This document shows, one piece after another, positions 2,594 to 37,998 of a stretch of DNA of 64,000 nucleotides. The stretch lies in sequence record MN022785.1; one strand, given 5' to 3'. Source of the DNA: Escherichia phage VEc20. The notes under the pieces are model-generated. The model searched no databases and was not told the origin of the DNA. It saw only the letters and a program-made list of their open reading frames with translations. Numbering within the stretch: position 1 is the stretch's first letter; the number at the start of each line of letters is the position of its first letter. A program made the translations under genes and the position numbers.

Positions 2594-2857
2594 TTATTTC
2601 ATATTATTGAAATATTCTTCTGCGATTTCGTCGTTATCATGGTAAACTTTAGAAGACAGTTTAACATAACCTTCTGCTGTGAACATATTAATCACAACTT
2701 TTACAGTATACCACTGACCGTCTTCATTACCCATTACTGCGTAAGTTTCAAACATCGGATGATCAGGACCGATAACTTTAATATCATTCACTGTACGACC
2801 GAAATCTTCTGAAACGCATTTCATAAAGAAGTTGAACAGTTCGCCGTAATTATCCAT
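2594..2857 (-). CDS. hypothetical protein (87 aa)
   Basis: ORF track 2594..2911 trimmed: start MDNYGELF at 2857 lies downstream of promoter 2902-2930 and has GGAG RBS. Confidence 0.55.
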   Translation of the reverse strand: MDNYGELFNFFMKCVSEDFGRTVNDIKVIGPDHPMFETYAVMGNEDGQWYTVKVVINMFTAEGYVKLSSKVYHDNDEIAEEYFNNMK

Positions 2858-2930: not shown

Positions 2931-3062
2931 CAGTTTTGTGAAAAAATTTTTAAAAAGTTTTAGGGAATTCTAGGGTCAGGAGGGACAATTAAAAGGTAGG
3001 ATAATATATTATAAAGGGTATAAACTAAATGATGCCTAGAGAGACAAGGAAAGGCCTAGATA

Positions 3063-3091
3063 CCAAAAAGCCCCAACCTTTTGGTCGGGGC
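3063..3091 (-). terminator. rho-independent terminator after the internal-protein-like gene
   Basis: minus-strand hairpin AGCCCCGACC-AAAA-GGTTGGGGCT followed by TTTTTGG. Confidence 0.65.
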
Positions 3092-3099
3092 TAAGAATG

Positions 3100-3561
3100 T
3101 TATTTGATTTGTTTAGCAGACCAAATGCGGTCTTTGATGATTTTTTGGAGGTCTTCAACATACTCTAGGTCATGAGCATGTGGATTATCTTTGAAACTAT
3201 GAGCTCGCGCAAGTTTCTGGCCTTCGGTCTTAATTATCAAAAGTTCTTTAAGAATTGCTTCATACCTAGAGATAATTCCTTTAGCAATATTTTTTTCTTG
3301 TGCTGCTTTAGGGTCAGCCTTAGGAGCAGGTTTACCAGAAGGTTTTTCGAAAGCCGCGCCAGTAGCAACCAGGCTTTTCCAGGCGGTGGTAACATAGTTA
3401 CCCACAAAGCCTTCAGCTCTCATATCGTCGTAGAACTTGTACCGAGATTCGTCAGAAGCATCTTTATAAGAATATTTACCAGCTTTAATAGCAGCAGTTG
3501 CTACAGCGCGAACATCTGAAGCGGATGCTTCGGTCATTAAAAATTGAGCATAAGTTTTCAT
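3100..3561 (-). CDS. internal-protein-like late protein with capsid-targeting-type N-terminus (MKTYAQFLMTE)
   Basis: 153 aa; AGGAAA RBS; own late promoter TATAAATA upstream and rho-independent terminator downstream; N-terminus resembles T4 IP leader MKTYQEFIAE. Confidence 0.65.
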   Translation of the reverse strand: MKTYAQFLMTEASASDVRAVATAAIKAGKYSYKDASDESRYKFYDDMRAEGFVGNYVTTAWKSLVATGAAFEKPSGKPAPKADPKAAQEKNIAKGIISRYEAILKELLIIKTEGQKLARAHSFKDNPHAHDLEYVEDLQKIIKDRIWSAKQIK

Positions 3562-3589
3562 TGTTATTTCCTGTGTTAATTAACTCATC

Positions 3590-3597
3590 TATTTATA
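3590..3597 (-). promoter_or_regulatory. T4 late promoter TATAAATA (gene 3100..3561)
   Basis: plus-strand tatttata; AGGAAA RBS and ATG 29 nt downstream on minus. Confidence 0.6.
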
Positions 3598-3598
3598 C

Positions 3599-3627
3599 TA
3601 AAAAGCCCCAACCTTTCGATCGGGGCT
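3599..3627 (-). terminator. rho-independent terminator ending the tRNA/stable-RNA transcription unit
   Basis: minus-strand hairpin GCCCC...GGGGC followed by TTTTT, then the late promoter. Confidence 0.6.
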
Positions 3628-3674
3628 AAGCCTTGCGGCAACCTTGTCGGGGTTCCACCTGCTAAGGCAAGTGT

Positions 3675-3840
3675 TTGTACGAAACGCCGGGATTCGAACC
3701 CGGTTATTAAGTAGTTGACGCTACTCAATATTTTTAAAAGGCCATATCTCGACCATATCCGAACGTTCCGTCAAAAACGCTACTCGGCTTACGGCAAAGA
3801 TATTTCCTCGAATCGATAATTCGGTGCGCCGTTTCTGCTG
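3675..3840 (-). ncRNA. tRNA-like stable RNA (T4 species 1/2-like); boundaries approximate
   Basis: minus-strand T-arm CCGGG-TTCGAAT-CCCGG followed by acceptor-like CGTTTCG; complementary GAAACG about 150 nt upstream; no ORF. Confidence 0.35.
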
Positions 3841-3934
3841 TGATAGTAAAGAGCCAGAACACAGTAAAACTGTGGGAGGAAACTATACTCCAGGGAACAT
3901 CAGTCCGACGACTTACCGGTAGCGACCCGGTTTC

Positions 3935-4285
3935 TTAATATTCTTTTAAAGAATCAATATATTCACGGCGTTTACGCCACAAATCAATTGCTTCATACGC
4001 GGATTCAGCATTTCGAATTAGCCGGCATTTATGTAAAGACTTATGATTTTGATATTGTGTAGATAACGGAATTGTATCTAAAAGGTCTTTACGATCAAAA
4101 TATTCGTAACCATCTAAACCAAATGAACGATTTTTGAGAAATTGCCAATGACCATATTCGTTTTCGACATAAACATAATCTGCATGCTGATAAAGCAAAT
4201 TAATTACACGTTCAGAAATAACAGTATCATTATGATTAAAATAGAATGTTAAATCATGAACTACTAAATAAACATTACCTTTCAT
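3935..4285 (-). CDS. hypothetical protein (116 aa) embedded between tRNA-Arg and the stable RNA
   Basis: ORF with GAGGAAAAT RBS directly before ATG; no recognisable motif. Confidence 0.6.
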   Translation of the reverse strand: MKGNVYLVVHDLTFYFNHNDTVISERVINLLYQHADYVYVENEYGHWQFLKNRSFGLDGYEYFDRKDLLDTIPLSTQYQNHKSLHKCRLIRNAESAYEAIDLWRKRREYIDSLKEY

Positions 4286-6350: not shown

Positions 6351-6584
6351 TTATTTTTTACGAAAAATTGATTTATTTTCTGCTGCCCATTTTTCAATAA
6401 CTGCAGCAGGACCAGTAACAACAATTTTATCACCGTAATCTTCTGCGGCGAGTTGACCGAAATTATCTAATGCATCACGAAGAACTCCATGAGGCATTTC
6501 ACCCATTTTATCTTTCTTGCCGGTGTAAATAAACTCAACTTTTACATCAGAAGATTCAGCGATAAACTCTTTGAAAGTTTTCAT
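6351..6584 (-). CDS. internal-protein-like small protein with capsid-targeting leader MKTFKEFIAE (77 aa)
   Basis: N-terminus matches T4 IP leader pattern with I-A-E cleavage-type site; ORF-track start 6596 is an alternative in-frame ATG. Confidence 0.6.
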   Translation of the reverse strand: MKTFKEFIAESSDVKVEFIYTGKKDKMGEMPHGVLRDALDNFGQLAAEDYGDKIVVTGPAAVIEKWAAENKSIFRKK

Positions 6585-6663: not shown

Positions 6664-6921
6664 TTATTTTAAATCTTCTAATCGTTTCTTCATCTTAGAA
6701 CCATTTTTAGCAATTTCTCCTGCATCGGAGCATAATGCTAAAAGTGCTTTAACTTTCGTTTGGTCTCCTTTAAAAGATGAAGGATCTACTGCAGCAGCAA
6801 GTTCTTTAATACGAGAGAAAAGACGCTCAGCTTCAGCTAAAGCCATTCCAAGCTTTACTTCCATACCGTGGGAAGATTCAGTGATAGTAGTTTTTGCAGC
6901 AAACTCTTTGAAAGTTTTCAT
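6664..6921 (-). CDS. internal-protein-like small protein with leader MKTFKEFAAKTTITE (85 aa)
   Basis: AGGAAAATAAAA RBS; N-terminus paralogous to 6351..6584, mature part unrelated. Confidence 0.65.
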   Translation of the reverse strand: MKTFKEFAAKTTITESSHGMEVKLGMALAEAERLFSRIKELAAAVDPSSFKGDQTKVKALLALCSDAGEIAKNGSKMKKRLEDLK

Positions 6922-34230: not shown

Positions 34231-35855
<1,625 letters not shown>

Positions 35856-35856
<1 letters not shown>

Positions 35857-36095
35857 TGGAAGGTTTAATTGAAGCTATTAAATCAAACGACCTCGTAGCC
35901 GCTCGTAAATTATTTGCTGAAGCCATGGCTGCAAGAACGACTGATTTAATTAAAGAAGAAAAAATCGCTATCGCTCGTAATTTCTTAATCGAAGGTGAAG
36001 AACCTGATGACGAGGATGATGACGAAGACGAAGATAGTGATGATAAAGACGACAAAAAAGACAAAGACTCTGACGAAGACGAGGATGATGAATAA
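35856..36095 (+). CDS. 67: gp67 prohead core protein (acidic C-terminus)
   Basis: 79 aa; poly-Asp/Glu tail; position after gene 20. Confidence 0.85.
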
Positions 36096-36520
36096 TGCTT
36101 CTGATCCCTGAAACTCATGAATTAGTTCTCGAGAATGTCGAAGCACTTATTCCTGAAGCACAGGGTCGCTTTGACGAATTGTCTTCTGCTTTAAATAAAG
36201 ACGATATAAATACAATTGTCGAGAATATGCTTGATGATGAAACTGATTTAGCGGTTGCATTAGCTTCTATTAATGAAAATATGCCGTTAAATGAATTTAT
36301 CGTTAAACATGTTTCCGCCCGTGGTGAAATTACTCGCACTAAAGACCGCAAAACGCGTGAACGTAATGCATTTCAAACCACTGGGCTGTCTAAAGCAAAA
36401 CGTAGACAAATTGCTCGTAAAGCTACCAAAACGAAGATTGCCAATCCAGCAGGTCAATCTCGTGCTCAGCGTAAGCGTAAAAAAGCTCTTAAACGCCGTA
36501 AAGCATTAGGATTAAGCTAA
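36095..36520 (+). CDS. 68: gp68 prohead core protein
   Basis: 141 aa as T4 gp68; basic C-terminus. Confidence 0.85.
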
Positions 36521-37158
36521 TGAATGAACCCCAATTACTAATTGAAACTTGGGGTCAACCTGGCGAAATTATTGATGGCGTACCAATGCTTGAATCTCAC
36601 GATGGAAAAGACTTAGGTTTAAAACCGGGTTTATACATCGAAGGAATATTCATGCAAGCGGAAGTCGTCAATAGAAATAAACGTCTTTATCCAAAACGTA
36701 TATTAGAAAAAGCGGTAAAAGACTATATTAATGAGCAAGTTTTAACTAAACAAGCTCTCGGAGAATTAAATCATCCTCCACGCGCTAATGTTGACCCGAT
36801 GCAAGCCGCTATCATTATAGAAGATATGTGGTGGAAAGGAAATGACGTATACGGACGAGCTCGTGTTATTGAAGGTGACCATGGTCCTGGAGATAAATTA
36901 GCAGCTAATATTCGTGCCGGATGGATTCCAGGAGTTTCTTCTCGTGGATTAGGTTCATTGACTGACACGAATAAAGGTTATCGTATCGTAAACGAAGGAT
37001 TCAAATTAACTGTAGGTGTTGATGCAGTATGGGGTCCAAGTGCTCCAGATGCATGGGTAACTCCTAAGGAAATTACCGAATCACAGACGGCGGAAGCCGA
37101 TACAAGTGCCGATGACGCCTATATGGCTCTCGCAGAGGCCATGAAAAAAGCGTTATAA
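36520..37158 (+). CDS. 21: prohead core protease
   Basis: 212 aa as T4 gp21. Confidence 0.9.
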   Translation: MNEPQLLIETWGQPGEIIDGVPMLESHDGKDLGLKPGLYIEGIFMQAEVVNRNKRLYPKRILEKAVKDYINEQVLTKQALGELNHPPRANVDPMQAAIIIEDMWWKGNDVYGRARVIEGDHGPGDKLAANIRAGWIPGVSSRGLGSLTDTNKGYRIVNEGFKLTVGVDAVWGPSAPDAWVTPKEITESQTAEADTSADDAYMALAEAMKKAL

Positions 37159-37161
37159 ATA
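37154..37161 (+). promoter_or_regulatory. T4 late promoter TATAAATA (gene 22)
   Basis: exact TATAAATA 28 nt upstream of gp22 ATG. Confidence 0.65.
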
Positions 37162-37188
37162 TTATTATCTAAACAACAGGACTACAAA

Positions 37189-37998
37189 ATGCTTAAAGAA
37201 CAACTGATTGCCGAAGCGCAGAAAATTGATGCTTCCGTTGCTCTTGATAGTATTTTCGAATCAGTTAATATTTCTCCGGAAGCAAAAGAAACTTTCGGCA
37301 CTGTATTCGAAGCTACCGTCAAGCAGCACGCCGTTAAATTAGCTGAATCTCATATCGCTAAAATTGCTGAAAAAGCAGAAGAAGAAGTAGAAAAAAATAA
37401 AGAAGAAGCAGAAGAAAAAGCTGAGAAGAAAATCGCTGAGCAAGCTTCTAAATTCCTTGACCATCTTGCAAAAGAATGGCTCACTGAAAATAAATTAGCA
37501 GTTGATAAAGGCATCAAAGCCGAACTGTTTGAATCCATGCTTGGTGGATTAAAAGAGCTCTTTGTTGAACACAACGTTGTTGTTCCAGAAGAATCAGTTG
37601 ATGTTGTAGCTGAAATGGAAGAAGAGCTGCAAGAACATAAAGAAGAATCAGCTCGTCTGTTCGAAGAACTCAATAAGCGTGACGCATATATCAATTATGT
37701 GCAGCGTGAAGTGGCATTGAGCGAAAGTACTAAAGATCTGACTGAGTCTCAAAAAGAAAAAGTCTCTGCTCTGGTCGAAGGTATGGATTATTCAGATGCA
37801 TTCTCAAGTAAATTGAGTGCAATCGTAGAAATGGTGAAGAAATCTAATAAAGATGAAAGCACTATTACTGAGAGTATAAATACTCCTGATACTGAAGCAG
37901 CCGGACTGAATTTCGTCACTGAAGCTGTAGAAGATAAAGCTGCACCTGGTGCAGAAGATATTGTAAGTGTATATGCGAAAGTCGCATCTCGTTTCTAA
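37189..37998 (+). CDS. 22: prohead core scaffold protein
   Basis: 269 aa as T4 gp22; helical/acidic. Confidence 0.9.
   Translation: MLKEQLIAEAQKIDASVALDSIFESVNISPEAKETFGTVFEATVKQHAVKLAESHIAKIAEKAEEEVEKNKEEAEEKAEKKIAEQASKFLDHLAKEWLTENKLAVDKGIKAELFESMLGGLKELFVEHNVVVPEESVDVVAEMEEELQEHKEESARLFEELNKRDAYINYVQREVALSESTKDLTESQKEKVSALVEGMDYSDAFSSKLSAIVEMVKKSNKDESTITESINTPDTEAAGLNFVTEAVEDKAAPGAEDIVSVYAKVASRF

Follow-up and report, generated by a model that had tools for sequence, protein, structure and literature searches.

A probable T4-type internal head protein encoded by a late cassette between rnaC and e.8 of Escherichia phage VEc20

The locus between the stable-RNA genes and the e.x genes of Escherichia phage VEc20 contains a single open reading frame (ORF 3100..3561, minus strand). 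It raises the question of whether a protein that starts like a T4 internal protein, encoded where T4 has no gene, is carried inside the phage head. The window analyzed is a stretch of 64,000 nucleotides from record MN022785.1 and belongs to a T4-like phage genome (Tequatrovirus). The class of internal proteins, their leader and their polymorphism have been known since the 1990s. Our analysis indicates that ORF 3100-3561 probably encodes an unnamed T4-type internal head protein, expressed from a self-contained late cassette whose site, between rnaC and e.8, would be the third locus for internal proteins. For packaging of the product, taken by itself, the likelihood is as good or slightly better; sequence and comparison argue well for it, and one proteome weakly.

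As the original prediction had stated, the ORF lies at these positions and has a start resembling that of T4 internal proteins. In sequence and translation it is complete, with 153 codons and a stop, starting MKTYAQFLMTEASASDV (MKTYAQFLMTEASA...). A Shine-Dalgarno sequence, AGGAA, can be read directly at 3568-3572 (minus strand), 6 nt 5' of the ATG. The protein is 100% identical to RB27_136 (“hypothetical protein”) and is assigned by PHROGs to phrog_2280, a family of unknown function. A tblastn search identified the family in 511 phage records (469 full length), which represent about 510 sequenced T4-like phages. The ratio of nonsynonymous to synonymous substitutions (dN/dS; Nei-Gojobori) among the window, Yersinia phage fD1 and Mosigvirus SHSML-52-1 lies in the range 0.07-0.13; dS is at least 1. 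ORF 3100-3561 is a protein-coding gene under purifying selection. That it might be a chance reading frame in the spacer between two terminators would agree with an annotation that nowhere goes beyond “hypothetical protein”, and no other point speaks for it. The conservation pattern already refutes this idea, which retains practically no probability: hundreds of records carry the ORF, a Shine-Dalgarno sequence and a promoter are present, the fold is predicted with confidence, and peptides of a homologue were detected in fD1.

The leader corresponds to codons 1-11 (3529..3561, minus strand). It is of the capsid-targeting type (Y4, F7, L8), with a proposed cleavage between E11 and A12. Translated from the T4 record, the leaders of IPII and IPIII read MKTYQEFIAE|ARV... 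and MKTYQEFIAE|ASV..., and that of IPI reads MKTFKEFTSTTTPVSTITE|AT.... The first 10 residues of IPIII are enough for capsid targeting, in which residues 4 and 7 are important; residues 8 and 10 are important for processing (PMC9026906). Both targeting determinants of IPIII, the aromatic residue (Y4) and the phenylalanine (F7), are present in ORF 3100-3561. Among all Met-started ORFs of at least 40 residues in the six frames of the window, exactly three match the pattern M[KLI]x[YF]x[EQD][FILV][LIA] of the leader: ORF 3100-3561 and, at the ipI locus, the two genes annotated as encoding internal proteins (6664-6921 and 6351-6584).

Chance resemblance to the leaders of internal proteins had been considered possible in the event that close homologues lacked it. 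The 19 family members in the alignment, with identities as low as 20%, all start M-x-x-[YF]-x-[EQD]-[FILV]-L, and Leu8 is invariant. The leader is kept by every full-length relative recovered, in Tequatrovirus, Mosigvirus and Jiaodavirus as well as in T4-like phages of Yersinia, Enterobacter and Serratia. Because close and distant homologues alike keep the leader, its likeness to those of T4 internal proteins is, on the sequence comparison, not a product of chance. Most relatives have canonical L-x-E sites (FLNE, VLNE, LTE and LAE), in leaders such as MKSYAQFLNE|AVLNE|ASS, MKFKEFLAE|ASS, MKPFSEFLNE|GVF and MKSYAEFLTE|QSS. The leader of ORF 3100-3561, MKTYAQFLMTE|ASA..., is a variant four residues shorter, with the site M-T-E.

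The scaffolding core and the prohead protease gp21 are encoded in the same genome as ORF 3100-3561 (34270-37998). The gp21 gene (36520..37158, plus strand) was recognized from gene order and from the LIE motif that PMC9026906 describes near the N-terminus of gp21. It is flanked by the core genes gp20 (34270-35856), gp67 (35856-36095), gp68 (36095-36520) and gp22 (37189-37998), identified from gene order. Cleavage by gp21 occurs after L/I-x-E, and a leader with blocked processing is still packaged (PMC9026906). Cleavage of the VEc20 protein after Glu11 would be plausible, though not canonical. It would yield the N-terminal peptide ASASDVR, and the uncleaved protein would yield TYAQFLMTEASASDVR. 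For g140, the fD1 homologue, the peptides predicted are ASSTEIQAVAK if the cut follows LNE-15 and AVLNEASSTEIQAVAK if it follows LNE-10.

The regulatory elements around the gene support a late expression. An exact T4-type late promoter, TATAAATA, is located at 3590..3597 on the minus strand, 28 nt 5' of the ATG. An intrinsic terminator is found just upstream (3599..3630, minus strand; stem 3604-3627, T-run 3599-3603; folding free energy -17.7 kcal/mol, z score -3.3). Its hairpin is GC-rich, has 10 bp and is followed by the T-run. A second one lies downstream of the gene (3064..3095, minus strand; stem 3069-3092, T-run 3064-3068; -19.5 kcal/mol, z score -4.2). The promoter and a terminator hairpin on each side had been announced in the original prediction, and folding recovered both hairpins. 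The upstream terminator is the predicted end of the tRNA/rnaD/rnaC transcription unit.

By itself, the octamer occurs at chance frequency, with eight copies on the minus strand of the window compared to about 6.7 expected from base composition. As the octamer alone is not rare in the window, its recurrence at homologous loci matters: exact TATAAATA is found 27-40 nt 5' of the start codon in 11 of 15 such loci, some of which have unrelated flanks. Two of the remaining four have one mismatch to the octamer, and two have nothing within 110 nt. The order of terminator, late promoter, gene and terminator is seen in fD1, RB27, five IMG/VR Tequatrovirus contigs, Nami, Klebsiella phage Mineola (Jiaodavirus) and Yersinia phage MHG19. 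The hairpin sequences of Mineola and MHG19 are unrelated to those of the window. These features support the assignment of ORF 3100-3561 as a putative self-contained late transcription unit, and an exact TATAAATA behind a terminator fits expression during prohead assembly. Since the rnaC terminator is directly 5' of the gene and its sole promoter is the late one, the gene would be silent early and transcribed while proheads are built; the elements are seen, and their activity is presumed.

The predicted mature protein (residues 12-153) has a mass of 15.7 kDa and an isoelectric point (pI) of 9.4, and contains 19 lysines. It is small and basic, comparable to the T4 internal proteins (pI 8.9-9.5). 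The AlphaFold2 model, built with the 19-sequence alignment as input, has a mean predicted local distance difference test score of 80.4. In this model, residues 1-10 are disordered ahead of the folded body, which would consist of a three-helix N-domain (residues 14-67), a Lys/Pro/Ala linker (71-83, KPSGKPAPKADPKAAQEK) and a C-terminal helical hairpin (84-150). IPI* has a compact alpha/beta fold (PMC3012670), whereas the fold predicted here has two helical domains with a Lys/Pro linker between them. The homology and structure searches that had been proposed for the mature part revealed no functional relative, and the family appears only in T4-like phages. There was no match above noise in Pfam or NCBIfam. 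When 5.8 billion and 1.8 billion proteins were searched, the relatives returned came solely from T4-like phages, none functionally named. Foldseek against the PDB gave hits at E of 0.6 or worse, and against BFVD only the own family, with no relative of known function. A profile search of PDB sequences gave nothing below E = 0.17, and a literature search by family locus tags turned up nothing relevant.

In the mechanism that we propose, the leader MKTYAQFLMTE, with the aromatic residue 4 and Phe 7 that direct IPIII, would load the protein into the scaffolding core or prohead; the motif is seen, the loading is presumed. The gp21 protease would then remove the leader, most likely after Glu11, freeing the basic two-domain helical protein, which would stay with the DNA. 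With the atypical M-T-E site this step might fail, in which case the uncleaved protein would still be packaged. The protein would finally be injected with the DNA and act before phage gene expression, most likely by inhibiting a host nuclease-type defence. This last step is drawn by analogy from Ip1, Ip2 and Ip3, which act on GmrSD variants, and from Bas37_0260, which acts on McrBC. Ip1, Ip2 and Ip3 are inhibitors of GmrSD type IV restriction enzymes, each with a different enzyme as its target (PMC12373910), and the leader-bearing Bas37_0260, encoded at the ipI locus of Bas37, inhibits McrBC (bioRxiv 10.1101/2025.11.20.689424). Every internal protein with a known target, four in all, inhibits a type IV restriction enzyme and is narrow in its specificity (PMC12373910; bioRxiv 10.1101/2025.11.20.689424).

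Purified virions of fD1 were analyzed by liquid chromatography coupled to tandem mass spectrometry by Skurnik and colleagues (PMC8309999). The homologue of ORF 3100-3561 in this phage, g140 (67942-68415, 157 residues), is ~80% identical, and was scored as particle-associated at the strict threshold (PMC8309999, Table S3). The Jiaodavirus virion proteome (PMC13119998; ValerieMcCarty03/04) is uninformative, as ValerieMcCarty03 does not have the gene; peptide searches of its truncated supplementary files gave no match, and it neither supports nor refutes packaging. The fPS-65 paper contains no proteomics. The view of the original prediction, that the product is internal-protein-like, late and packaged, draws good support from the leader, the promoter and the comparative data, and weak support from the fD1 detection.

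Several points weigh against an injected internal protein. The fD1 proteome is unspecific: 113-137 of the 277 phage proteins were flagged, DenV, lysozyme e and NudE among them, and the virion preparation also contained 672 host proteins (PMC8309999). The window allele reads L8-M9-T10-E11, with the Glu at position 11, and does not match the published L/I-x-E motif. Its packaging, cleavage and injection are predicted from sequence. The two recognized internal-protein genes of the window carry their own early-type promoters, so a late promoter is no shared hallmark of internal-protein genes. Finally, a gene that is under strong purifying selection and keeps to one slot is more typical of housekeeping components of the head than of proteins in an arms race.

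The first two of these points could also be read in terms of a late cytoplasmic protein that is not packaged, its leader being a functionless relic of recombination among internal-protein-type cassettes. A non-canonical processing site and a virion list contaminated with cytoplasmic enzymes are what such a protein would allow. A functionless relic would decay, however, and every aligned member has kept the leader, with identity in the remainder of the protein falling to ~20%. In addition, the residues kept (Y4, F7 and L8) are exactly those shown to be important in IPIII. An unpackaged protein is therefore considered improbable, and packaging through the leader is preferred.

For a packaged protein, a purely physical job inside the head has also to be weighed, such as DNA charge neutralization, genome organization or ejection, as was long assumed for IPII and IPIII. 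The pI, the number of lysines and the lysine-containing linker would suit such a role, as the lysines of internal proteins contact DNA phosphates (PMC3012670). The low dN/dS and the same slot held in several genera fit it somewhat better than they fit an anti-defence role. On the other hand, the gene is dispensable in nature, being missing from T4, PST and most Jiaodavirus genomes, and IPII and IPIII, once explained in this way, are now specific GmrSD inhibitors (PMC12373910). A physical role is therefore unlikely, although less so than an unpackaged protein. That the product is specifically an anti-defence factor is a tentative reading by analogy, to which we give somewhat less than even chances. 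The gene is non-essential in nature and polymorphic. Its product shows no similarity beyond the leader to the characterized inhibitors IpI-III or to IpIV-VI, and homology does not place it among the type IV inhibitors. The HIDEN-SEQ preprint reports no phenotype for a gene in the rnaC-e.8 slot. As a leader-bearing protein, it is a candidate for finding a new inhibitor-defence pair.

The location of the gene bears on its origin. The original prediction placed ipII and ipIII of T4 beyond gene e, with no such gene among the e.x genes, and the T4 map agrees. On this map, ipI is located beside 57B, no gene is present between e.8 and rnaC, and a single terminator hairpin follows rnaC. At the rnaC-e.8 slot, the window and RB27 have 535 bp extra compared to T4. 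This insertion/deletion unit (3060..3594) comprises one repeat copy, the ORF and the late promoter. It is bounded by a 36-nt direct repeat, with copy 1 at 3595-3630 and copy 2 at 3060-3095, identical at 33 of 36 positions; the repeat is the terminator itself. When 3060-3594 was removed in silico, the remainder gave an ungapped 236-bp alignment to the empty site of T4, at 93.2% identity. Homologous recombination between the two terminator copies could excise the cassette, and recombination of this kind would explain both the patchy presence of the gene and the empty site of T4.

The slot is syntenic in every genus examined (Tequatrovirus, Mosigvirus, Jiaodavirus and a Yersinia phage), 3' of the tRNA/stable-RNA cluster and 5' of the e.x genes. 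Roughly 760 genomes have these flanks in common, and the alleles of the gene encode 153, 154 or 157 residues. It is empty in T4, PST, ValerieMcCarty03 and Roth77, and the gene is absent from 112 of the 135 records matching the Mineola locus, nearly all of them Klebsiella phages. The same slot across genera indicates a resident gene and not a relocated copy; on this synteny, the gene is an old resident of its own locus that was lost from T4 and others. The leader is the sole part common to ORF 3100-3561 and to IpI-III of T4 and IpIV-VI of PST. A relocated ipI, ipII or ipIII is ruled out, as there is no homology beyond the leader. The protein had been called “relocated or novel”. The first of these terms fails, since the mature part is unlike IpI-IpVI and the gene has its own syntenic slot, and the second holds for a recognized internal protein, though not for the sequence as such. 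Its novelty is limited in this sense: the class is well known, and what is new is an unrecognized family within it, at a third locus absent from T4. The family has a head-loading tag, occurs in ~510 genomes of several genera, is missing from the model phage T4 and is not annotated as an internal protein in the records examined.

In the empty slot of Klebsiella phage Roth77, a 50-residue coding sequence (L007 2403-2555) is annotated as “anti-CBASS protein acb1”. It was rejected as support for an anti-defence hotspot. The annotation is likely wrong, as the Acb1 of T4 is the 152-residue product of 57B.

Cassettes of this general type in T4-type phages, the promoter-early stem-loops (PeSL), were reportedly described by Arbiol in 2010. 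In PeSL, repeated terminator and promoter motifs flank accessory ORFs and mediate their gain, loss and shuffling by recombination (Comeau 2014, PMC4122927). The 36-nt terminator repeat, which bounds the indel of the ORF 3100-3561 cassette exactly, resembles this arrangement. In contrast to PeSL, where an early sigma-70-type promoter is joined to the stem-loop, the late TATAAATA is joined to it here, and only the stem-loop part is repeated. The cassette works like a PeSL and is not a member of that family as defined. It provides a clean example of the gain and loss of an accessory gene via repeated regulatory hairpins.

A second leader-bearing phrog_2280 gene is located directly downstream in the same slot in 165 Tequatrovirus genomes (Nami/EcNP1/RB14-type). 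In Nami (L010 499-1062), it encodes 187 residues starting MKTYAEFLTE|AAK..., and carries a separate near-consensus late promoter (AATAAATA) and a separate terminator. It has the PHROG, the leader and the slot in common with ORF 3100-3561, is absent from the window, and is aligned by the family profile in its leader only. While the alleles of ORF 3100-3561 are 72-100% identical, this second gene is nearly invariant among its carriers (95-99% identical in 156 of the 165, at least 99% in eight and 80-90% in one). In containing leader-bearing genes in varying number, with repeated regulatory motifs on their flanks, the slot behaves like the two classical internal-protein loci. A further-reaching and rather doubtful idea is that it is a third, unrecognized internal-protein locus of the Tevenvirinae holding one or two late-promoter phrog_2280 cassettes. 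By this idea, the injected two-domain protein would disarm a defence that T4 cannot counter, possibly outside the type IV enzymes, and its repeat-toggled presence would be a determinant of host range among T4-like phages that are nearly identical in other respects. In phage-therapy collections of T4-like phages, the presence of the cassette could help to explain differences in host range.

Compared to IPI-III of T4, ORF 3100-3561 has the leader in common (MKTY..F(L/I); MKTYAQFLMTE|AS here, MKTYQEFIAE|AS in IPIII). All are small, basic, non-essential and variably present, in phages with a gp21/gp22 core. They differ in their dissimilar mature parts, in their genomic loci and in the cleavage site, which is I-A-E in T4 as opposed to Glu11 with Met at P3. 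ORF 3100-3561 further differs in having an exact late promoter of its own. In relatives of T4, alternative leader-bearing proteins replace or add to IpI-III, namely IpIV, IpV and IpVI of PST and Bas37_0260. The PST-type and Bas37 genes are found at the two classical loci, beside 57B and beside gene e, whereas the ORF 3100-3561 family is found between rnaC and e.8. In GenBank searches, the Ip label was absent from the family records.

The window has PST-type genes at its ipI locus, both on the minus strand: 6664-6921 encodes IpV of PST (84 of 85 residues identical) and 6351-6584 encodes IpVI (77 of 77). PHROGs assigns the products of these two genes as internal head protein and internal virion protein. 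One and the same early-type promoter cassette of ~45 nt (aaaataatttcacaaagttgtttacata...gtgatactatta) is found 5' of both. In Bas37, too, the ipI locus contains two genes (bioRxiv 10.1101/2025.11.20.689424).

In the direction of minus-strand transcription, the region is ordered as gene 1, 57A, 57B, the two internal-protein genes, tRNA.4/.3/.2, eleven tRNAs, a 116-residue ORF, rnaD, rnaC, ORF 3100-3561, and e.8 and e.6 onward. Alignment to the RB27 and T4 annotation places rnaC at 3678-3816 and rnaD at ~3822-3936, both on the minus strand. The former is 99% identical to T4 and the latter only ~79%, its central part having diverged, an unusually sharp contrast between neighbours. Rfam has no model for rnaC or rnaD. 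The 116-residue ORF (3935-4285; phrog_3355, function unknown) lies between rnaD and tRNA-Arg, a position at which RB27 is without a gene. Downstream of ORF 3100-3561, the next unit starts with e.8 (2594..2857, minus strand), which is 96% identical to T4 and has its own early-type promoter (2902-2930). The e.7 gene, present in T4 and RB27, is absent from this genome (2491-2594).

Within ORF 3100-3561, a run of seven T on the plus strand (A7 in the gene) is located at 3286-3292. Several database alleles (P0006, P0008 and P0053) stop just past ...AAQEK, followed by a few or ~20 out-of-frame residues. The truncated alleles fit a frameshift at the A7 homopolymer, in Tequatrovirus and Mosigvirus, that leaves a protein of the N-domain only. 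They could be real variation or a homopolymer sequencing error. This reading is drawn from P0006, P0008 and P0053; the cluster also has members of 93-97 residues (P0015, P0017 and P0028).

Two chimeric ORFs were also encountered in metagenome and run assemblies. In P0009, the tRNA.3 protein is joined to the last 30 residues of ORF 3100-3561, which implies a deletion of the whole tRNA/rnaD/rnaC cluster. In P0010, residues 9-39 of ORF 3100-3561 (from Met9, MTEASASDV...) are joined to NudE, which implies that the stretch from e.8 to e.2 was deleted. The two chimeras point to natural deletions of large size that had one endpoint within the ORF 3100-3561 gene.

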